Of a DNA stretch of 64,000 nucleotides, positions 31,180-53,777 are shown one piece after another; within the stretch, counting starts at the first letter, position 1, and each line of letters opens with the position of its first letter. This stretch comes from Candidatus Parcubacteria bacterium. Lineage in GTDB: Bacteria; Patescibacteriota; Minisyncoccia; UBA6257; HR35. The position numbers and the translations under genes are program-made. The stretch covers positions 523,547-587,546 of the forward strand of contig AP024681.1 of NCBI GenBank assembly GCA_025999335.1, written 5' to 3'. A model generated the notes under the pieces. It searched no databases and had not been told where the DNA came from. It worked only from the letters and a program-made list of their open reading frames with translations.

Positions 31180-31710
31180 ATGCAAAAAATTGCTTTTATT
31201 ATAGCTAAAAGATATTTTCGAGATGAAGAATTTTTTGTGCCAGCTAGGATGTTAGAAAATGCTGGTTATGAAGTAGTTGTTGTGAGTAATGCTAAGAAAG
31301 GAGAAAGTGCTGTTGGTGCAAATGGCGGTGAGGTTGTTGTTGATTTAGAATTAGAAAATTTAAATCCTGAAAATTTTGATATGGTAGTTTTTGTTGGTGG
31401 TCCAGGAGCTTTGGAAAATTTGGATAATGAAATTAGTTATAAAATTGCCCAAAAAACTGTTGAGTTGAAGAAAAAATTAGCAGCGATTTGCATTGCGCCA
31501 ACGATTTTAGCTAAAGCTGGAGTTTTGAAAGGCAAGAAAGCAACCTGTTGGTCAAGTGAAGAAAACAAAAAACCAATTAAAGTTTTAGAAGAAAATGGCG
31601 CAGAATATACTGGTGAAGATGTTGTTCGCGATGGGGATTTAGTTACTGCCAATGGTCCAGCAGCTGCTGAAAAATTTGGTAAAATATTATTAGAAATATT
31701 GAAAGAATAA
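31180..31710 (+). CDS. DJ-1/PfpI-family protein
   Basis: VVFVGGPGA motif. Nucleophile-elbow Cys in AAICIAPTILAKAG. Confidence 0.75.
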   Translation: MQKIAFIIAKRYFRDEEFFVPARMLENAGYEVVVVSNAKKGESAVGANGGEVVVDLELENLNPENFDMVVFVGGPGALENLDNEISYKIAQKTVELKKKLAAICIAPTILAKAGVLKGKKATCWSSEENKKPIKVLEENGAEYTGEDVVRDGDLVTANGPAAAEKFGKILLEILKE

Positions 31711-31752
31711 AGAAAAGAAAGTTCTCTACAAAATAAAAACAACAATCATTAT

Positions 31753-31805
31753 TCCGGGGTAGTTCAGTGGTACCTGCCTACCGGCAGGCAGGGAACGCGC
31801 GGCTG
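31753..31805 (+). pseudogene. Degenerate 5' half of tRNA-Asn, ending inside the anticodon and carrying a 20-nt palindromic insert in the D-loop
   Basis: tccggggtagttcagtggta + [cctgcctaccggcaggcagg] + gaacgcgcggctg matches nt 1-34 of the intact tRNA-Asn at 32052 apart from the insert. Sequence then diverges (cataat...). Confidence 0.7.
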
Positions 31806-31821
31806 CATAATATAAAATAAA

Positions 31822-32061
31822 ATGAATTATTACGTGTATGTTTTGAGAAGTTTGAAAACAGGAAAACATTATATAGGTATAAGCAAAAATCCAGAGAAGA
31901 GACTAAAAGAGCACAACAAAGGGGATAGTAAATTTACGAAAGGTCATAGACCATGGGTTTTGGTTTATAAAGAGTTTGTTGGTAATAGATTAAAAGCTAG
32001 AGTAAAAGAAAAAGAATTGAAAAGATCATACACAAAACGAAAAAATTTTATTCCGGGGTAG
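31822..32061 (+). CDS. GIY-YIG nuclease-superfamily small protein, 79 aa
   Basis: MNYYVYVLRSLKTGKHYIGISKNPEKRLKEHNKG is the classic GIY-YIG motif (YVY...YIG...R..EH). The stop codon lies inside the first 10 nt of the intact tRNA-Asn. Confidence 0.7.
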   Translation: MNYYVYVLRSLKTGKHYIGISKNPEKRLKEHNKGDSKFTKGHRPWVLVYKEFVGNRLKARVKEKELKRSYTKRKNFIPG

Positions 32062-32123
32062 TTCAGTGGTAGAACGCGCGGCTGTTAACCGCGATGTCGT
32101 AGGTTCGAATCCTACCCCCGGAG
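32052..32123 (+). tRNA. tRNA-Asn(GUU), intact
   Basis: Hand-folded. Acceptor TCCGGGG/CCCCGGA. D-arm GTTC-AGTGGTA-GAAC. Anticodon stem CGCGG/CCGCG with loop CTGTTAA, giving anticodon GTT with A37. T-arm GTAGG-TTCGAAT-CCTAC. Discriminator G. Confidence 0.85.
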
Positions 32124-33710
32124 CAAAGAGGACTGATTTTCGCTTAAATTCTCAAAATCCCTATTAAAATCTTGCTTTTCTTGATTTTTAGCTGGTTCGA
32201 ATACACCCTCTTTCTCTAACTCACCAGGAAGATCCATTATTCGAACCGTAAATATAGGCTCAATCTTTACATTCAGCTTTTTATCCTTTACTATAAATTC
32301 AGAACCTATACACTTTAAAATAGTCCTTTTAGTGGCAATATCTCCGTTAAGATAAGCTTCTTTTATCTTTCCCACGATATTTACATAGTCAATAGCATAA
32401 TCAATCCATCTATCATCTTCATATTCTTGTTCTCTTAACATAGTTTCAATAGCTTGCTTTCTTTTTCTTAGCGGTTCAATATTCCTTTGAAATTCCTCCT
32501 CAGTAATCTCTCCGCTTGATTTCATATTTATTAAGTTATCAATCTGATTAGTTATAGCAGAATACATTCTTTTATAATGACCTAAATTCTTTTCTCTTTC
32601 TTCTTTTCTTTTTCTTTGTTCTTCTTTCAAAGTACTAATAGCCCAGTTATGAATAGCTTCAGGAATGCTAATATTTGATAAAACTTCTAAAATTTCATTT
32701 TCTAACTCCTCCTCTCTTATTGGTTTTTGATGGCAAATTCCAGGATAATTTTTCTTTTTAGCACATTCATAATAAACATATCTCAGAACCCTACCATTTT
32801 TGTTTCTTTTCAATTTTTCATAGCTAGTTAAAACACCACCGCATTCACCACATCTTAATAAGCCTCTAAACATATGAACGATTTTCCTCTTTTTAGGACT
32901 TCCTTTTCTATTTAAAATTTCTTGAACCAATAACCAAGTTTCTTTATCAATAACAGGCTCATAATTTCCTTTATACCAATTACCAGAACCTTTAGGATAT
33001 TCAAACTCACCATAATAATCAGGACATCTTAACATTGCATAAAATTTACTCGGAGATAATCTTTTGCCATATCTATTTGTTAATCCCCACTCATCAACAG
33101 CTATTCTATAAACTTCTTTAGGAGTGTATTGACCACTTGCTAATGTTTCAAATACTTTTCTTATAATATGAAATCTTTCTGGATCAGGAAAATAGTTATG
33201 TTCGCCTTTAGGAGAATATTTGTTATTGAGATAACCCAAAGGAGCTAATCCTGGTTTAAATCCTTTTTCAGCTTTCTTTCTCAGCCCTCTTTTAGTATTA
33301 GTAGCGAGATCTCTAATATACTGGTTAGCCATTCCAGTTTCTACAGCCCATAATAAAGCGTTATCTTCTGGCTTATAAACTCTTTCTGGTGTTCTAATTT
33401 CTTTAATTATTTCTTTTTGTAAAAGCCATTGAATTGTTCCTGAATCAATAGGGTTCCTGCTAAGTCTATCAACTTTCCAACATAAAATAGCATTAGCCTC
33501 TCCTTTTTTAATTTTTTCAATCATTAAGTTAAAAATCTCCCTTCCCGGCTCTTTAGCACTTTTAGCTTCTGTTAAAATATCAACAACTTCTAAACCCTCT
33601 TTTTCTGCTAATTTTTGTAATTCTTCAACCTGAGATTCTAAAGATAAGACCTGTCTATCTTCTGACTCTGAACTTTTTCTAGCATATATAATGTATCTAA
33701 GTTTTCCCAT
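32112..33710 (-). CDS. Large serine recombinase/integrase
   Basis: The N-terminal resolvase catalytic domain has IIYARKSSESEDRQ (catalytic Ser) and VDRLSRN. A recombinase domain and a Cys-rich zinc ribbon (CGECGG...C..C) follow. The 3' end, including the stop, overlaps the last 12 nt of tRNA-Asn. Confidence 0.8.
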   Translation of the reverse strand: MGKLRYIIYARKSSESEDRQVLSLESQVEELQKLAEKEGLEVVDILTEAKSAKEPGREIFNLMIEKIKKGEANAILCWKVDRLSRNPIDSGTIQWLLQKEIIKEIRTPERVYKPEDNALLWAVETGMANQYIRDLATNTKRGLRKKAEKGFKPGLAPLGYLNNKYSPKGEHNYFPDPERFHIIRKVFETLASGQYTPKEVYRIAVDEWGLTNRYGKRLSPSKFYAMLRCPDYYGEFEYPKGSGNWYKGNYEPVIDKETWLLVQEILNRKGSPKKRKIVHMFRGLLRCGECGGVLTSYEKLKRNKNGRVLRYVYYECAKKKNYPGICHQKPIREEELENEILEVLSNISIPEAIHNWAISTLKEEQRKRKEEREKNLGHYKRMYSAITNQIDNLINMKSSGEITEEEFQRNIEPLRKRKQAIETMLREQEYEDDRWIDYAIDYVNIVGKIKEAYLNGDIATKRTILKCIGSEFIVKDKKLNVKIEPIFTVRIMDLPGELEKEGVFEPAKNQEKQDFNRDFENLSENQSSLLRG

Positions 33711-33980: not shown

Positions 33981-35924
33981 TTAGAACTGAATGTCTAAAA
34001 TTGATAAACTCTCTTTACTCGATACTTCTGCATCTTCACTCTTTTCGTTTAAAAACCAACGATATGTAGCTCCCTTTTTATTTTCTTTTGGGTTTCTGCA
34101 AATTGAACCCTTATCATAAAGGCGGTCTAATGAAGCTTTTAGTTTTTTTCTTGTTATTTTGATTCCTTCATTCTCGAGTTCTTCTTTTATTGCGCTATAG
34201 ATTTCTGATGTTGTTAGCTCTTTTCCAGAATTTTCCTGTAAAAAATTAATTACAGCTTCTTCAATTAAAATGTTTTCTTCTTCAGAGATGTTAATTGATT
34301 TCAATTTCCCATTTTCGTCGAATTCATAAACAAGCTCTTTTGGTTCAATTATTCTTCCCTGCGATCTTAAAATTCTTCTTTTTTTATTATTTTCATGAAT
34401 GTTTAGGGTAATAAGAATGTCAAACATACCAGCGAGTGCGTGTGTTCCTGCAATTGACTTAATCCCTTGTTCGCTTTTGATCGTATGATGCAGTACAATT
34501 AGCGTTGTCCTTCTTTCTTGAAGAAATCTCAAAAAATTTAGCAATAAATTGCTTACTTCACTAGCAGAGGTTTCGTCTCTAATGTCATTACCAACGATAC
34601 TTCTTAGAGTATCTATAATCAAGATATCGGGGCTTAAATTTTTCACAATCTCATTAACTCCTTCAATCCCTAACGCTAATGCTGGTAGTATCAAAAGATT
34701 CTCCTTAATCTTTTCGAAATCCAAGCCTTCAAATAGACCAAACTCTTCATAATTTTTGATTCTTTTCTTCCATAAACTTTTAGATTCTTCTGAGAGATAT
34801 AGAATTTTATAATTTTCAGCCCATCCTAAACAATTTCTAAAAATAAGCTCTGTTTTTCCAGTTTTAGGATACGCAGAAAGAATATGCGTCCACCCCTTAA
34901 CAATAAACCCATTTTCTCCAATTAAGGGTATGAACTCTAGTTGATCTTCTGTTTCGCTTAAGAGATCATCGATAGTAAAGAAGCCCTTCTTTAATTTTTC
35001 GATATAGTCATAATTTAATGTTTTTAAATCACCGCCCTGTTGGTAAAATTCGGTGACATCTTTCCCGCAGGGGAGATTTATTATATAAACATCGCTCACT
35101 GAAAGGCTTAATTTGTTTATTAGATTATTCAACCAAGTTTTTCCAGTCTCATCACGGTCTGGAATAAGAAAAATTTTCTTAAACCTCCTAATTATATCAA
35201 CCCATTCATCAAGCCATTTAGTTGTTCCGCCTCCTGCGATTGTCAGGACGTTGAAACCTTCTTGATTCAGTAAAATAGCATCCAATTCTCCTTCTACCAG
35301 ATATATTTCTTCCTTTTCAAAGTCAACACAGTTAATTGGAAATAAAGTTTTCTTTGTTCCCGATCTTAACCACTTATACTTTTCCAGGTTTGGATTTTCC
35401 TTTAAGGGATCACGCCTGATTTTATAGTTTACAATTTTTCCGCTTTCGTCAAAAATTGGGATCCCAATCCAATAATTTCCTTTTTTATCTTTAAAACAAC
35501 TAAAACCAAATTTAGCAATAGTTTCATCAGTTAGTTTTCTTTTCTTTAACCAATCCTTTAGCTCTTCCGTTAAATCAATCAATTTATAAAACCCTTCACT
35601 AGCTGCCTCTTCTGTTTTTTCTTCAATATCATCAATTTCTCTTAAATAATGTTTTTTTAGATACCTAATGGCATCTTTGGTTGTTAAATTATGACAAATT
35701 TTAATGAAAGAAATAACATTTCCGCCTTTTCCGCAACCAAAGCAATACCAACTATTGGTTTTAGGATATATAGTAAATGAAGGATGGTTATCGTTATGAA
35801 AAGGACATTTTATTTGAGGTGTTCTTCTATTAGGAATTGCAATATCAGTTTCTCTTTGAATTACTTCTTTAATATCGAGATTATTTATTTTTTCAAATAT
35901 GTTATAATTATTTTGTAAAGACAT
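33981..35924 (-). CDS. Bifunctional phage/plasmid-type primase-helicase (zf-CHC2 + Toprim primase fused to a RepA/DnaB-like P-loop ATPase)
   Basis: CHC2 zinc finger (CPFHNDNHPSFTIY...WYCFGCGKGGNVISF). Toprim (LVEGELDAILL). Walker A (AYPKTGKTEL) and Walker B (ILIIDTL) motifs. Confidence 0.75.
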   Translation of the reverse strand: MSLQNNYNIFEKINNLDIKEVIQRETDIAIPNRRTPQIKCPFHNDNHPSFTIYPKTNSWYCFGCGKGGNVISFIKICHNLTTKDAIRYLKKHYLREIDDIEEKTEEAASEGFYKLIDLTEELKDWLKKRKLTDETIAKFGFSCFKDKKGNYWIGIPIFDESGKIVNYKIRRDPLKENPNLEKYKWLRSGTKKTLFPINCVDFEKEEIYLVEGELDAILLNQEGFNVLTIAGGGTTKWLDEWVDIIRRFKKIFLIPDRDETGKTWLNNLINKLSLSVSDVYIINLPCGKDVTEFYQQGGDLKTLNYDYIEKLKKGFFTIDDLLSETEDQLEFIPLIGENGFIVKGWTHILSAYPKTGKTELIFRNCLGWAENYKILYLSEESKSLWKKRIKNYEEFGLFEGLDFEKIKENLLILPALALGIEGVNEIVKNLSPDILIIDTLRSIVGNDIRDETSASEVSNLLLNFLRFLQERRTTLIVLHHTIKSEQGIKSIAGTHALAGMFDILITLNIHENNKKRRILRSQGRIIEPKELVYEFDENGKLKSINISEEENILIEEAVINFLQENSGKELTTSEIYSAIKEELENEGIKITRKKLKASLDRLYDKGSICRNPKENKKGATYRWFLNEKSEDAEVSSKESLSILDIQF

Positions 35925-38940: not shown

Positions 38941-41685
38941 ATGAGAAACTCGACAAACAATTGGAAGACGGTAGTATTAAAAAAGTTTGAGGAACTAGAT
39001 TATAAGAAAGAGATTCTTACAATTTTTGATGAAAGAACCAAAAAGATAGATTTTTCAAGTTGTATTAAGCAACATCAAAAACAGAACTTCGAAGACGAAG
39101 CTTACATAAGAGCCTATCTTGTTTTGAGACTCATAAAAGAGCTTAATTATCCATGTGAAGTGATAGAGTTAGAAAAAAAATATTCCATAGGTCATCCTTC
39201 TAAAAAAGAAGCCCGTTTAGATATTCTTGTTAAGACTAAAAGAGGAAATCCATTCATGTTATTAGAGTGCAAAACCCCAGATAACTTTATCAAAGAAAAA
39301 GATGATGCTCTAGAAAATCAACTTTTTGCAATTGCTAAGCACGAAATAAGAGGCGAAATAAAACCAAAATACTTAGTCTTATATACAATAGATATTGAAA
39401 ATGGAAAAGTTTTAGATAGAGCAATTATAATAGATTTCGAACAATACTCAACTTATGAAGATTGGAAAGAAGCAGGAGAATCTTCCTTGGATGAGATACC
39501 AGCAGATTATGGTATAGCAAAAAAATATACGTATGCCAACATAGAAAGACCAAATCCAAATGGTGGTTTAAAACCCCTAAGAAAAGATTATACTCTTGCA
39601 GATTTTGAAAAGCTAAGAGTAGATCTACATAACAAATTATGGGCTGGAGGTGAGGCTGATTACAACGATATCTTCTATCATCTAATAAAGATAATGCTCG
39701 TTAAAATATATGATGAGTTATTTACGCCCGAAGGAGGAATTTATGACTTTCAAATATTTTATAAGAATGGTGAACCAGAAACCCCAGAGGAACTAGCAGA
39801 AAGATTAGAAAAGAAATACAAAATCGCTTTAAAAGAACTTTTAAACTATGATGATGAAAAAATAAAGGAAATACCTTTGATTGAGAGAGATAAATTTACT
39901 TATGAAAAGTTATTCTATGCCGTAGAGAAACTCCAAGAAATTTCTTTAACAGAAAATATTCATAGCAAAGGAGAAGATGTTTTGGGCTTATTCTTTGAAA
40001 GCATATTACAAAACGAATTTAAACAAAGTAAAGGACAGTATTTCACTCATAAGAATATTGTAAGATTTTTAATTTATGCATTAGAATTAGATAAATTAGC
40101 GATAGACAAGTTGAATCAAACATATCCACACTTTCCATACATTATAGACCCTGCTGCTGGTAGTGGCACATTTCTTGTTGAAGCAATGAAAATTATTACA
40201 AAAGAAGTGTTGAGAAATAAAGATAAATTAAAACTTACTAGATCTTTAAAAGAAAAAATAAAGGACTTAGAAGACCCTAATAGGAAACATCGTTGGGCAG
40301 AAGATTATATTTATGGAATTGAGCCGAACGCCCGTTTAGGTTTAGCAACCAAACTAAACATGATTCTGCATGGCGATGGAAACATGAATATTTTTATTGA
40401 AGATGGTCTAATGCCTTTCAAAATAAAAGATGAAGCGTTTTACACGAGAAAGTGGAAAGGGAAGGATGTTGGTTTGTTGGCTGAGGGTGAAAATACGAGT
40501 ATTTACCCAAAACCAATAAATGGACGTTTTGATGTGGTACTATCAAACCCGCCTTTCTCTATGAAAATTGAGGCGATGAAAGCTTATAGGTACATAAAAG
40601 ATACCTTTGTTTTTTACGATAAGAAAAATTCAGAAAACTTATTTATAGAAAGATGGTTCCAGTTATTAGCCCCCAAAGGAAGATTAGGTGTTGTCTTGCC
40701 AGAAAGTGTTTTTGATACTAAAGAAAACCTATATATCAGGAATTTTCTTTATAAGTATTTCAAAATAAAGGCTATCATCAGCCTGCCTAAGGAAGCTTTT
40801 GAACCTTACACATCAACGAAGGTTAGTTTGTTAATTGCAGAAAAGAAAACCGATGAAGAAATTAAAGCATGGGAGGATAAATGGAGAGAGTATGCAAACA
40901 AATACAATAAATTAAGAAATTCAGAAATAATCCGGTTTTTCATAGAGAACGATAAAATTCTTAACTCTTTCAGAACACTTTTGGACAAACATAATATTGA
41001 AATAGATTATTCAAAAGTTTTGGTTCATGACTTGTTGGATGATAATTTGAAAGGTGAAATTGAAGCAAAAATATTACAAAATGATAAAAATAAATTTAAG
41101 GATTTGGTAAAGAAAATAAAATACTTTAAAGATAAATATAAACTGGACGAGTTAGATACTGAAGAAAATAAGAAAATTCTGAAGGAATTTCTGAAACAAT
41201 TTTATCCACAAGAGCAAGAGCTTAAGAGTTTTAAAGAACTCTTAGAATATGTTTATGATGATGTTCTGGAAATAGCCACTTTGGACTATCCACAAATTGA
41301 AGGGCAAAACAATTACTGTAATAGCTGGTGGGTTTTTGGAGAGGTATCTAAGCACTTTAATTATTCGATATTCTACGCTGAAGTTGAAAACATTGGGTAT
41401 AAGAGAACAAAGAGGGGCGAACAAGACAAAGACATTCCAATAAAAGATGAAAATGGAAATATCATCGCTTTTAAAAACGATTTCTTTAAAGTTAAAGCCG
41501 AGAAAGTGAAGAGAACATATTGGGTTAAGAAAGGGGATAAAGTAGTTCAGGAAGAAAAAGAGGAAATTATCAAAACCGACATAATAATAGATACAGAAAA
41601 TCCTGAAACTGTGCTTGACCATATAAGAAGTGCAAACATTTGGTCAGAAAATTCCAATTTTAATTTTGAGGTGAAAGAAAAATGA
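38941..41685 (+). CDS. Fused restriction endonuclease / N6-adenine DNA methyltransferase (Type IIG/IIB, BcgI-A-like)
   Basis: The N-terminal HSDR_N-like PD-(D/E)xK domain has RLDILVKTKRGNPFMLLECK. The central gamma-class MTase has motif X (GQYFTHKNIV), motif I (IDPAAGSGTFLVEA) and motif IV (VLSNPPFS). The C-terminal ~350 aa is helical and of unknown role. Confidence 0.7.
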   Translation: MRNSTNNWKTVVLKKFEELDYKKEILTIFDERTKKIDFSSCIKQHQKQNFEDEAYIRAYLVLRLIKELNYPCEVIELEKKYSIGHPSKKEARLDILVKTKRGNPFMLLECKTPDNFIKEKDDALENQLFAIAKHEIRGEIKPKYLVLYTIDIENGKVLDRAIIIDFEQYSTYEDWKEAGESSLDEIPADYGIAKKYTYANIERPNPNGGLKPLRKDYTLADFEKLRVDLHNKLWAGGEADYNDIFYHLIKIMLVKIYDELFTPEGGIYDFQIFYKNGEPETPEELAERLEKKYKIALKELLNYDDEKIKEIPLIERDKFTYEKLFYAVEKLQEISLTENIHSKGEDVLGLFFESILQNEFKQSKGQYFTHKNIVRFLIYALELDKLAIDKLNQTYPHFPYIIDPAAGSGTFLVEAMKIITKEVLRNKDKLKLTRSLKEKIKDLEDPNRKHRWAEDYIYGIEPNARLGLATKLNMILHGDGNMNIFIEDGLMPFKIKDEAFYTRKWKGKDVGLLAEGENTSIYPKPINGRFDVVLSNPPFSMKIEAMKAYRYIKDTFVFYDKKNSENLFIERWFQLLAPKGRLGVVLPESVFDTKENLYIRNFLYKYFKIKAIISLPKEAFEPYTSTKVSLLIAEKKTDEEIKAWEDKWREYANKYNKLRNSEIIRFFIENDKILNSFRTLLDKHNIEIDYSKVLVHDLLDDNLKGEIEAKILQNDKNKFKDLVKKIKYFKDKYKLDELDTEENKKILKEFLKQFYPQEQELKSFKELLEYVYDDVLEIATLDYPQIEGQNNYCNSWWVFGEVSKHFNYSIFYAEVENIGYKRTKRGEQDKDIPIKDENGNIIAFKNDFFKVKAEKVKRTYWVKKGDKVVQEEKEEIIKTDIIIDTENPETVLDHIRSANIWSENSNFNFEVKEK

Positions 41686-45572: not shown

Positions 45573-46844
45573 TTATAATTTTAAAATAGTTTTTTTGAAA
45601 TTTGAAAACCTGTTTTCTTTAATTGACTTTCTAATTTCTTTAAATAAATTCAAAATCCAGAACACATTATGTTCAGTTAAAAGTATAATGCCGTAAATTT
45701 CTTTTTCGCGAAGCAGATGACAAATATATGCTCGTGAATATTTTCTACAAATATTACATTTGCATTTGGGATCAATAGGTTTTTTATCTGTTAAATATTT
45801 ACTTGCTTTTAAATTAATTCTTCCATTAAAACTAAATCCTGTTCCATGCCTTGCCCATCTGGTTGGAATTACACAATCAAATAAATCAATTCCTTGTTCA
45901 ATTGAATTCAAAATATCATCAATTTCTCCAATTCCCAAAAGATGTCGTGGTTTTTTATAATCAAGATAAGGCAAAGCCCAACTTAAAACTTTAATAATAT
46001 CTTTTTTACTTTTACCCAAACTTCCACCGATACCAAAACCAAAAAAGGGAAGTGAATTAATAAATTGAGCCGATTCTTTTCTTAAATCTTCATATTCTCC
46101 TCCTTGAACAATTCCAAACAAAACTTGATTTTTGGTTTTACCAAATTCATCCAAGCATTTAATTGCCCATTTATGAGTTCTTTTTAATGCTTCTTTTGTG
46201 TATTTATAATCAGACAAAGGGGAAGTGCATTCATCAAAAGCAAAAATAATATCTGCGCCCAAAATTTTTTGAACTTTAATTGAAATTTTTGGAGATAAAA
46301 ATAATTTTTGTCCATTGTAAGGATCAATAAATTCAACACCATCATCATAAATTCTAACCAGATTCTTTTTTAATGCAGATAAACGCGGATTTTTATCACG
46401 CGGATTTACGCCGATATTATTTTCTGTGTATATCCCGTTTTTTTTATTTTCCGCGTAGTTCCGCGTTAGTTCTGCAGAGTTTTTCATTTCCTCAGGAAAA
46501 ATATCTGCCACTTTTCCAACCCCATGTTCCATTCCGAAACCCAAACTAAAAACCTGAAATCCTCCACTATCAGTCATTAAAGGATAATTAATATTTAAAA
46601 ATTTATGCAAACTACCAAATTTTTTAATAATTTTATATTTTTCCTGACGAAAAAAATGAAAAGTATTAATCATAAAAATTTCAGCACCAAATTTTTTAGC
46701 TTGTTCAAAACTTAAACCTCGAATACCACCTTTTGTTGCAACAATTGCTAAATTAGGAGTTTTAATTAAACCATGAGGTGTTTTAAAAATTCCTAATCTT
46801 GCTTTTGTTGTTTTGTCTTTCTTTAATATTTTAAATTTAAACAT
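45573..46844 (-). CDS. tgt: tRNA-guanine transglycosylase (queuine tRNA-ribosyltransferase)
   Basis: LMTDSGGFQ catalytic motif. Zn site CKCNICRKYSRAYICHL (CxCxxC...H). A low-complexity repeat insertion lies around 46380-46470. Confidence 0.8.
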   Translation of the reverse strand: MFKFKILKKDKTTKARLGIFKTPHGLIKTPNLAIVATKGGIRGLSFEQAKKFGAEIFMINTFHFFRQEKYKIIKKFGSLHKFLNINYPLMTDSGGFQVFSLGFGMEHGVGKVADIFPEEMKNSAELTRNYAENKKNGIYTENNIGVNPRDKNPRLSALKKNLVRIYDDGVEFIDPYNGQKLFLSPKISIKVQKILGADIIFAFDECTSPLSDYKYTKEALKRTHKWAIKCLDEFGKTKNQVLFGIVQGGEYEDLRKESAQFINSLPFFGFGIGGSLGKSKKDIIKVLSWALPYLDYKKPRHLLGIGEIDDILNSIEQGIDLFDCVIPTRWARHGTGFSFNGRINLKASKYLTDKKPIDPKCKCNICRKYSRAYICHLLREKEIYGIILLTEHNVFWILNLFKEIRKSIKENRFSNFKKTILKL

Positions 46845-46845
46845 T

Positions 46846-47724
46846 TTAGTAAAATATTGTTTTAATTTTTGGATAAGGAATCTTAAATTTAATTTTATGA
46901 GCCAAATTCCAAATTAAATTATCAACTAAATAAGACGGCAAAGCTAATTTTTTTGATAAATTTTCTCCTAAAATAATACTTGCCCACCTTAATTCATTTT
47001 CCAAGATTGAATGTGTTTTGATATTTTTTTTATTTTTTATTTTATTTAAAATGTTTTTTGGCAAAGAAATTAGGTTAAAGTTTATAAACAATTGTGGTAA
47101 TTTATAATCAACAAAAACAGTTAATTCTTCTAACTCAGTTTTGAATTTTTTATCTAGTTTATTACCAATAATAAATTCAAAATATAAAAGTTGGTTTGGT
47201 TTTAAAAAATAAAAATTTCGATAATAATCTTTAAATTTTTTCAAATAAAAAAGATTTAAACAAAATTTTAATGGATTTTTGTTTTCTTCAAAGTAATTTA
47301 AAAAATCACCATCATAATTTTTATTGAGCCAAGCTAAAGCTTGTTTGAAAATTTTATATCTTAAATTAGCTAAATTATAATTTTCTTTTGGTGAAATTAA
47401 TTTTCTAAAAATATCAAAATCTATTTTATTAAAATTAATATTGAATAAATTTTTTGTTTTTAACAAAAGTCCATAGAATCCTTTTTCGTTTTTAAATTGC
47501 CAATTTTTAGGAAATTCCCATAATCTAAAATCTAAAACTCTAAGAAAAAATAAGAAATTACTTAATTTTTTAAGCTCAATATTTTTTAAATATTTTTTAA
47601 ATTTATCAAAATCTTGTTTTTCTTTTTTTATTAACTTAAAAAAGTCTGTATTAATTTCATTTGTTTCTATAATCCTAAATTGATAATTTTTATTTTTGTC
47701 TAATATAAAATTTTTCAAACTCAT
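46846..47724 (-). CDS. Hypothetical protein, 292 aa, immediately downstream of tgt
   Basis: ORF only. Lys/Asn/Phe-rich. No recognisable motif. Confidence 0.3.
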   Translation of the reverse strand: MSLKNFILDKNKNYQFRIIETNEINTDFFKLIKKEKQDFDKFKKYLKNIELKKLSNFLFFLRVLDFRLWEFPKNWQFKNEKGFYGLLLKTKNLFNINFNKIDFDIFRKLISPKENYNLANLRYKIFKQALAWLNKNYDGDFLNYFEENKNPLKFCLNLFYLKKFKDYYRNFYFLKPNQLLYFEFIIGNKLDKKFKTELEELTVFVDYKLPQLFINFNLISLPKNILNKIKNKKNIKTHSILENELRWASIILGENLSKKLALPSYLVDNLIWNLAHKIKFKIPYPKIKTIFY

Positions 47725-52300: not shown

Positions 52301-52465
52301 TTGGTATTCATTTATTTTTACAATTTCAAATTGATAATTTTTATTTTCACTTAAAATTTTCTCTTTCAGTTCCTTTGATGATTCTTTCAAAAACGCTATA
52401 GCGTATTATAGAGGATTATTAACAGAGAAACGATTATTAAATAAAAATTTTTATCTGAAAGTTTT

Positions 52466-52475
52466 TTGGTATAAT
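52466..52475 (+). promoter_or_regulatory. Extended -10 promoter element (TTGGTATAAT; TG at 52467-52468, TATAAT at 52470-52475) upstream of the intron-containing tRNA-Asn
   Basis: TGnTATAAT about 45 nt upstream of the tRNA 5' end at 52522. Confidence 0.4.
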
Positions 52476-52521
52476 AATTTATATAGACAAAGAAAGCACT
52501 CTAAAATTTTTTTTTAAACAC

Positions 52522-52818
52522 TCCGGGGTAGTTCAGTGGTAGAACGCGCGGCTGTACTTAGTGCAGCTTCCATCCGTAAGGATGGATGAAAAACAGGGTG
52601 AAAACGGTGAAGCCCTCTAAAGGGTAATACCGTGCCAGCCTAAGCTGAAAAGCTTTGGAAGGTGTAGAGACTATTCCTTAATGGAAGTAGGCTTAGTAAT
52701 TTTACTAAGTCGAAGCACCCCGCCCCAGTAAAACTGGGTGAAGATATAGTCCACTCCTTAAGGAAACTTAAGGGAAAGTGTAACCGCGATGTCGCAGGTT
52801 CGAATCCTGCCCCCGGAG
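52522..52818 (+). tRNA. tRNA-Asn(GUU) interrupted by a group I intron in the anticodon loop. Exons are 52522-52555 and 52781-52818.
   Basis: The 5' exon is identical to nt 1-35 of the tRNA-Asn at 32052. The 3' exon taaccgcgatgtcgcaggttcgaatcctgcccccggag completes the anticodon loop CTGT|TAA. It differs from the other copy only by a compensatory T-stem pair (GCAGG/CCTGC versus GTAGG/CCTAC). Confidence 0.8.
52556..52780 (+). ncRNA. Group I self-splicing intron, 225 nt, no ORF
   Basis: The 5' exon ends in U and the intron ends in G (omega-G). The internal guide sequence GCAGC at intron nt 8-12 pairs with exon GCUGU (P1, with a U·G wobble). R-like element AGAGACUA and S element AAGAUAUAGUCC form P7 (GACUA/UAGUC). 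P/Q-like GGGUGAAA and GCCCUCUAAAGGG segments are present. Confidence 0.7.
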
Positions 52819-52859
52819 CACAGAAGAATAATTTTCATCCTCTTTTTCAAAAATTTTAA

Positions 52860-53777
52860 TTAATAAGGTTTTAAAAATTTTTCGCTTAGCCATTTTAAAA
52901 GTTCTTTTAAATATGGTAGAAATTGTGTAATAGTATCAACGACTGGGGCGAAGATATTTATTTTCTCAATAATAAGATTATTTAAACGATTAGTCCTATT
53001 AAGCTCTCTAATTAGATAGTTGTTTAATCTTGGAAGCCACTCTTCTTTATAAAGTTCTATAGTTTCGGGTTTTCCTTCTACATAAGATAAAGCTACTTTT
53101 TCTGGATTTAAGATCGAGCCATCAAGTATTTTTTTAATTCTTTCTTCTTTCATAACATAAATAATCCAAGAGTCTCCGTATAATTTTTTCAGCTCTTCAT
53201 CGCTGTAGCCACCTTTTATGATTTGAGAAGTTTCATAGAGTTGAGACCAGAAAGTAAATTCATGATTAAGTTTTGCTGCTCGCAACCTTTCTTTAGCATT
53301 CGTATATTCTTTAAAATACGGAAAGCTGATTAGATTTTCAATGTTCTTTCTAATCGGCGAATCGCTAGGAATTTTAGCCAATACATGATTGGCGATTTCT
53401 AAAACTATTAATTCATACCGCTTCTCTATTATATCCACCGGAGCCTTCTCTAATTTTTGAAAATCTTTAATGTAAATTTCAACTAATTCGTCATTAACAC
53501 CATATTGATTCAAAAGTTCCAATAATTTATATTTATCCAGTTTGTTTTTAGTTTCATCATTCGCTTTTTTCTCGTGTTTCTTTAACTCGGCTATTAATTT
53601 TTTTTCTTCAGTTTTCCAACCTTTTTCTAATCTTCTGATAATGTTTGCCAATCCAGGTGTGTTTAGTATGAAATTAATATAACTTGGCAATATATTTAAA
53701 AATGTTCTAGCATCTCCGTCTTTTAATTCATAATAATATCTTTCTAAAGTTTCTTTAATTGAATTTTTATAATTCAT
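52860..53777 (-). CDS. Hypothetical protein, 305 aa
   Basis: ORF only. Helical, Glu/Lys-rich. Confidence 0.3.
   Translation of the reverse strand: MNYKNSIKETLERYYYELKDGDARTFLNILPSYINFILNTPGLANIIRRLEKGWKTEEKKLIAELKKHEKKANDETKNKLDKYKLLELLNQYGVNDELVEIYIKDFQKLEKAPVDIIEKRYELIVLEIANHVLAKIPSDSPIRKNIENLISFPYFKEYTNAKERLRAAKLNHEFTFWSQLYETSQIIKGGYSDEELKKLYGDSWIIYVMKEERIKKILDGSILNPEKVALSYVEGKPETIELYKEEWLPRLNNYLIRELNRTNRLNNLIIEKINIFAPVVDTITQFLPYLKELLKWLSEKFLKPY

Follow-up and report, generated by a model that had tools for sequence, protein, structure and literature searches.

Positions 52522-52818 of the window, the 64-kb stretch of the Candidatus Parcubacteria bacterium KatS3mg097 genome analyzed here, very probably hold a tRNA-Asn(GUU) gene of a member of the Paceibacteria (Patescibacteria/CPR) that is split between U35 and U36 by an ORF-less, 225-nt group I intron of IA architecture, which would self-splice along the pathway proposed below. 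A sequence-only reading of the window had found this split gene, and correctly so, but the locus is already published (Nakagawa et al., mSystems 2026, PMC13011429; bioRxiv preprint of July 2025, 10.1101/2025.07.03.662931).

A tRNA-Asn gene interrupted within its anticodon

The sequence-only reading had called a second tRNA-Asn(GUU) gene here, split at 35/36. The call stands: run with intron detection, ARAGORN reports tRNA-Asn(gtt) [52522,52819] i(35,225), and the boundaries and the cloverleaf agree with it. The 5' exon, which ends in ...GGCUGU, reproduces nucleotides 1-34 of the intact tRNA-Asn elsewhere in the window without a mismatch, while the 3' exon matches that copy at 37 of 39 positions. 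Joined together, the exons (52522-52555 plus 52781-52818) give a 72-73-nt RNA that folds into a cloverleaf with anticodon GUU (-31.5 kcal/mol, RNAfold), as the intact copy also does. The spliced product and the intact gene (32052-32124) are the same at 71 of 73 positions, which bears out the reading's further claim that the exons are almost identical to the uninterrupted tRNA-Asn at 32052-32123. Because the two mismatches form both sides of a single T-stem pair (C-G versus U-A), they are compensatory, and these exon-2 differences recur in relatives L181-L186 and L191.

Whether the gene is detected depends on how the programs are run. In default mode on the whole 64-kb window, ARAGORN missed the split gene and called just two uninterrupted tRNAs; Rfam at the gathering threshold on the whole window listed the same two and missed the locus too, as its default filters drop the Intron_gpI match. 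On 52450-52900 alone, the Rfam Intron_gpI search that the sequence-only reading had proposed returned RF00028 at 54.4 bits (E 3.3e-13), a match that spans the model in full (1-253) and lies only 4.4 bits above the curated gathering score of 50 bits. The default misses are thus a matter of filter and option, not evidence of absence, and in CPR genomes, screens run at default settings would systematically pass over tRNA genes that an intron splits at 35/36. Such overlooked genes bear on estimates of genome completeness, a point already in print. Near the split gene, a scan for promoters and terminators gave nothing better than shuffled sequences.

Architecture of the intron

The intron starts with ACUU and ends with AGUG, placing the terminal omega-G at 52780, and its G+C content is 44%, compared with 29% for the window. 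The group I hallmarks that the sequence-only reading had seen in the intervening 225 nt (52556-52780) were all recovered: an exon whose last base is U and an intron whose last base is G, an internal guide GCAGC (52563-67) that pairs with exon GCUGU (52551-55) and sets U35.G at the splice site, and R-like and S-like elements that form P7 (Table 1). The guide/exon and P7 pairings are far beyond chance. Folding P1-P9, as that reading had also suggested, yielded the complete set plus P7.1 and P7.2, with P2 at 52570-85, P3 formed by GGGUG with CACCC, and P4, P5, P6/P6a, P8 and P9 all mapped. Folding to minimum free energy without constraints reproduces the P2-P6 region, P7.1, P7.2 and P9, and places P8 in a variant register. 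Inspection by eye revealed no convincing P10 pairing. The window's intron contains no homing endonuclease ORF, for which 225 nt and a 3-nt P1 loop leave no room.

Hairpins P7.1 and P7.2 between P7 and P3' are a hallmark of subgroup IA in the Michel-Westhof classification, and it is by this layout that we take the window's intron to belong to subgroup IA. Among published introns at 35/36, 25 of 28 are IA, and no Patescibacteria tRNA intron is IC (PMC13011429).

Table 1. Features of the split tRNA-Asn gene, the intron-less copy and its neighborhood (window coordinates)
Feature	Position	Strand	Description or evidence
Extra tRNA-Asn 5' exon copy	31753-31806	+	nt 1-20 and 21-33 exact; stops at the anticodon, 35/36 site
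Free-standing GIY-YIG nuclease gene, 79 aa	31822-32061	+	Pfam PF01541, E 5e-15; KatS3mg097_540
Intron-less paralog tRNA-Asn(GUU)	32052-32123	+	ARAGORN; Rfam tRNA 73.7 bits
Large serine recombinase	32112-33710	-	Pfam Resolvase, Recombinase, Zn_ribbon_recom; NCBIfam XisF/Ccr-like
Island primase-helicase	33981-35924		
Island type IIG restriction-modification enzyme	38941-41685		
Split tRNA-Asn(GUU), 5' exon	52522-52555	+	tRNA positions 1-35, ends G34 U35; ARAGORN intron mode
P1 helix	52550-52568	+	exon GGCUGU plus intron AC paired with internal guide GUGCAGCU; U35.G wobble at 5' splice site
Group I intron, 225 nt, IA-type architecture, no ORF	52556-52780	+	RF00028; P1-P9 map; covariation; PMC13011429 Table S3
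P7	52669-52751	+	GACUA 52669-73 with UAGUC 52747-51
Elements enclosed by P7		+	P7.1 52674-86; P7.2 52690-52711; P3' 52716-20; P8 52724-38
Split tRNA-Asn(GUU), 3' exon	52781-52818	+	U36 to discriminator base

Conservation of the fold in related introns

A scan for the P7/J8-7 pattern in one genome per species yielded 59 loci, many of them in Patescibacteria, and a metagenome scan with an exon-junction, guide and P7 pattern yielded at least 120 stretches, from which spliced tRNAs were rebuilt by a minimal/canonical-length product rule. Among the metagenome matches listed, 78 were resolved, comprising at least 49 tRNA-Asn(GUU), at least 26 tRNA-Asp(GUC) and at least 3 tRNA-Tyr genes, all split after U35. 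All 49 Asn introns among the matches listed end in ...G/UAA (the slash marks the intron end), 38 of them as GUG/UAA. The P7.1/P7.2 layout of the window is shared, again among the matches listed, by about 20 Asn introns and by none of those in tRNA-Asp or tRNA-Tyr. The Asp and Asn introns from the one-genome-per-species scan lack the window's P7.1/P7.2, which MAFFT misaligned against them.

The set used to assess covariation consisted of the window's intron and 20 metagenomic Asn introns (21 homologs), aligned with MAFFT with no structure fitting. In these 21 sequences, all 6 pairs of P2 covary and 98% are formed, 6 of the 7 pairs of P9 have changed on both sides, and P4 and P3 are 100% and 91% paired, respectively. 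The cores of P1 and P7 are invariant across the set; P1 forms in all 21 members, with U35 opposite G and U33 opposite A. None of 500 shuffles reached the covariation score, and controls with slid pairing partners collapsed. As MAFFT misaligns hairpins of variable length, P7.1, P7.2 and P8 were folded sequence by sequence, and these single-sequence folds contain P7.1 in 20, P7.2 in 20 and P8 in all of the 21 sequences, formed by unrelated sequences. Covariation in the 20 metagenomic relatives thus supports the fold, including the P3-P8 core with its P3/P7 pseudoknot.

Among the matches listed, all recovered 35/36 introns, Asn, Asp and Tyr alike, lie in tRNAs with a GUN anticodon, under a scan pattern that itself demanded CUGU and GCAGCUU. 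Such tRNAs share C32-U33-G34-U35, which is complementary to the conserved guide GCAG, and this pairing may explain the confinement of the intron family to them.

Relation to published tRNA introns

Table S3 of PMC13011429 contains an entry for GCA_025999335.1 (Paceibacteria), with the tRNA at 576068-576364 and the intron at 576102-576326. Its 297-nt string is identical to the whole split gene in the window and has the same boundaries, which places the window at 523547-587546 of that genome; with the exact locus listed there, the finding is therefore already known. The sequence-only reading had been aware of no such intron reported from tRNA-Asn or from a CPR-like genome, a remark since overtaken by the paper's 15 tRNA-Asn cases and its entry for this locus. 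In 95 complete Patescibacteria genomes, the authors found 35/36 group I introns in 15 tRNA-Asn(GUU) and 3 tRNA-Asp(GUC) genes, frequent misannotation of such split genes as Thr(UGU) interrupted at 33/34, and HNH genes within four of the Asn introns; nearly all Patescibacteria tRNA introns were classed as IA (PMC13011429). The window's intron shares with these the host tRNA, the insertion site, the phylum and the IA-type class. The paper does not discuss the paired intron-less copy of the window's genome or its GIY-YIG/recombinase context.

The self-splicing group I introns of cyanobacterial and plastid tRNA-Leu(UAA), Azoarcus tRNA-Ile and Agrobacterium tRNA-Arg resemble the window's intron in being small and ORF-less and in interrupting the anticodon loop, with a U at the exon end and a G at the intron end. 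They belong to subgroup IC3, however, whereas the window's intron is IA-type, has P7.1/P7.2 and sits at 35/36. P7.1 and P7.2 are likewise found between P7 and P3' in the IA phage introns T4 td and Twort orf142-I2, but these interrupt protein-coding genes, are larger and often come with endonuclease genes, while that of the window is minimal (225 nt) and lies in a tRNA. The insertion sites of the tRNA-Leu, tRNA-Ile and tRNA-Arg introns are 34/35, 36/37 or 33/34 (PMC13011429).

Proposed splicing pathway

In the pathway we propose, P1 would arise where the last six exon bases, GGCUGU, pair with the internal guide GCAGCU, U35 and G forming a wobble. An external guanosine held in P7 would then attack 3' of U35, after which the terminal G (52780) would move into the G-site. 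Attack by the free 3'-OH of U35 on the bond between this G and U36 would finally ligate a normal tRNA-Asn and release the intron.

Precise in vitro self-splicing at 35/36 has been reported for one Asn and one Asp example from Patescibacteria, with an omega-G-to-C control (PMC13011429). The assayed Asn homolog (GCA_016700035.1) is about 60% identical to the window's intron and differs from it in having one hairpin after P7 where the window has two. By analogy with this Patescibacterium tRNA-Asn intron, the window's own RNA would be expected to splice, although selection for splicing could be weakened by the intron-less paralog that lies about 20 kb from it.

The intron-less copy and its surroundings

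As the sequence-only reading had pointed out, tRNA-Asn copies with and without the intron (52522-52818 and 32052-32123) occur in the same genome. Such coexistence is rare (PMC13011429), and the window's genome is one of the rare cases of both forms of the same tRNA. Upstream of the intron-less copy lies an additional copy of the tRNA-Asn 5' exon, interrupted by a 20-nt GC-rich hairpin at 31773-92, and next to it a free-standing GIY-YIG nuclease gene whose stop codon falls within the 5' end of the intron-less tRNA-Asn. The PF01541 domain spans residues 2-73 of the 79-aa protein, and Pfam detected no separate DNA-binding domain in it, only the bare catalytic domain. The protein matches the group I intron endonuclease model TIGR01453 weakly, at 23.9 bits, below the cut-off. 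With dN/dS of 0.05-0.16 across relatives, the nuclease is under purifying selection. Rfam assigned no RNA family to the 5' exon fragment/GIY-YIG region (31600-32250).

On the other side, the 3' end of a large serine recombinase gene overlaps the intron-less tRNA-Asn's 3' end and marks the start of what looks like an integrated island (32112 to ~45200). Besides the recombinase, a primase-helicase and a type IIG restriction-modification enzyme, the island holds hypothetical proteins, and it is absent from the syntenic relatives L187 and L189. From ~45.5 kb on, the genes are ordinary ones, such as those for TGT, queuosine salvage, an M20 peptidase and an amino-acid kinase. The TGT and queuosine-salvage genes (45573-47724) sit between the two copies of tRNA-Asn(GUU), itself a queuosine substrate.

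Intron-plus and intron-minus alleles in relatives

The module of 5' exon fragment, GIY-YIG gene and tRNA-Asn is present in every close GIY-YIG homolog examined, preceding tRNA-Asn in L181-L188, and the nuclease measures 79-84 aa among these homologs. In L181-L186, the tRNA-Asn downstream of the GIY-YIG gene carries a 35/36 intron that shares 80-83% overall identity with that of the window, and as much as 96% in places. L187 and L188, whose nuclease is 97.5% identical, resemble the window in having no intron in the tRNA downstream. The L187 fragment reads ...GGCUGU/AUAAUAU and ends exactly at 35/36 (slash); the window has a U-to-C change at the last base. We found no description of this module in the literature, and PMC13011429 makes no mention of GIY-YIG or free-standing endonucleases.

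An HNH-like ORF occupies the P1 loop of some related introns: L185 (643-1032) and L191 (6648-7004) have it intact, L182 (3313-3435) has a version truncated to 40 aa, and the introns of the window, L181 and L183 lack it. The L185 and L191 ORFs match PF01844 weakly over nearly the full model (E 0.034 and 4e-4, respectively); at E <= 0.01, Pfam gave no family for the L185 ORF, and HNH matches to it were weak and came at permissive thresholds. This pattern of presence and truncation looks like a cycle of endonuclease gain and decay.

The order of genes in L189 follows that of the window on either side, running from CTP synthase, YkuD and DJ-1 directly into an intron-bearing tRNA-Asn and then onward from a Trypsin_2 protein. 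Given this collinearity, window positions 31753-52521 (20.8 kb) are extra relative to L189. In both L189 and L190, the 4-12.5 kb retrieved contain the intron-bearing gene alone, at the syntenic position. The intron-less tRNA-Asn of L187 (6902-6974) and the intron-containing one of L189 (6574-6877) both lie directly downstream of DJ-1 and have the same 3' flank, CACAGAAGAAUAAUUUUCA, and they represent an intron presence/absence polymorphism at one locus. Both alleles are found in the window, 20.4 kb from each other, with the recombinase island and a housekeeping block between them. Beside related intron-bearing genes, an intron-less tRNA-Asn was found at none of 49 loci (281 kb), all with short flanks.

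Alternative explanations

The presence of an intact second tRNA-Asn invites the view that the split gene is a redundant, decaying pseudogene whose intron no longer splices, all tRNA-Asn being supplied by the copy at 32052; since coexistence of the two forms is rare (PMC13011429), one copy could be dispensable. We regard this as very unlikely. All conserved core elements of the intron are intact, its sequence is 80-83% identical to the introns of L181 and L183, and the exons are undamaged, their exon-2 differences matching the only tRNA-Asn genes detected in relatives. In the synteny partner L189, moreover, the intron-bearing gene is the sole copy at the locus. The identity of the gene could also be questioned, as moving both boundaries by 2 nt still leaves U at the exon end and G at the intron end and turns the gene into a tRNA-Thr(UGU) with an intron at 33/34. 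This is what tFind calls for the locus in Table S3 of PMC13011429, and ARAGORN makes the same miscall for L025, L032, L039 and L059. Yet the tRNA body shares 97% identity with the genome's own tRNA-Asn, and the sequenced spliced product of a homolog has the 35/36 junction (PMC13011429), so that a tRNA-Thr(UGU) is almost certainly the wrong identification. The 33/34 boundary itself was rejected because in the P1 helix of all 21 homologs it is U35 that faces G, in the defining wobble, whereas U33 faces A.

A split tRNA-Asn(GUU) remains our preferred reading on both counts, and a further alternative touches only the claim that its genome holds both copies. Strain variants with and without the intron could have been stitched in tandem during assembly: the locus next to DJ-1 holds one allele in some close relatives and the other allele in others (L187 versus L189), and one short-read contig breaks within the repeated tRNA 5' half. 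However, the 20.8-kb interval that separates the two copies holds single-copy genes (TGT, amino-acid kinase and others) and no duplicated flanks, and the record, classed as a complete genome, consists of one 680-kb contig. We consider an assembly artifact highly improbable.

A possible set of selfish elements at one site

The clade's tRNA-Asn may host three selfish elements at 35/36, namely the ORF-less IA intron, the HNH gene gained and lost in the P1 loop and the conserved free-standing GIY-YIG gene. On this proposal, which we hold to be doubtful, the GIY-YIG nuclease would cut tRNA-Asn DNA at or near the site and so promote its own homing together with that of the intron, in the collaborative manner; the partial duplication and the intron polymorphism would likewise be its work, and the window's two copies would be a snapshot of this process. 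In collaborative (trans) homing, a single target serves both a free-standing endonuclease and an intron that lacks an ORF (reviewed in PMC3984707), as exemplified by T4 mobE/I-TevIII (PMC2790892) and F-CphI/psbA (PMC6083498), and T4 SegB is a GIY-YIG enzyme located in a tRNA cluster (PMC2330249). The present case is similar in that a conserved free-standing GIY-YIG gene adjoins tRNA-Asn and that the 35/36 site of the ORF-less intron coincides with the end of the duplicated 5' exon. It differs from those systems in that the nuclease is merely a catalytic domain of 79-84 aa whose cleavage here is putative, and from simple homing in that the GIY-YIG gene of the window and of L187 adjoins an intact, apparently uncut intron-less tRNA-Asn. 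The bare catalytic domain and the intact intron-less target next to it count against simple homing. We therefore treat the GIY-YIG/5' exon fragment module and the intron-plus/minus polymorphism as modest leads only; together, the GIY-YIG module, the duplicated 5' exon and the recombinase island offer a testable case of tRNA intron gain, loss and mobilization in ultra-small bacteria.

GC-rich palindromic units are inserted into the 5' exon fragment at its D-loop region, in one to about three copies depending on the relative (L182 2905-2998; L183 92-165; L187 6573-6655; window 31773-31792), and they were never seen in the functional tRNA copies of the window and its relatives. These units possibly break the homology between the direct repeats.
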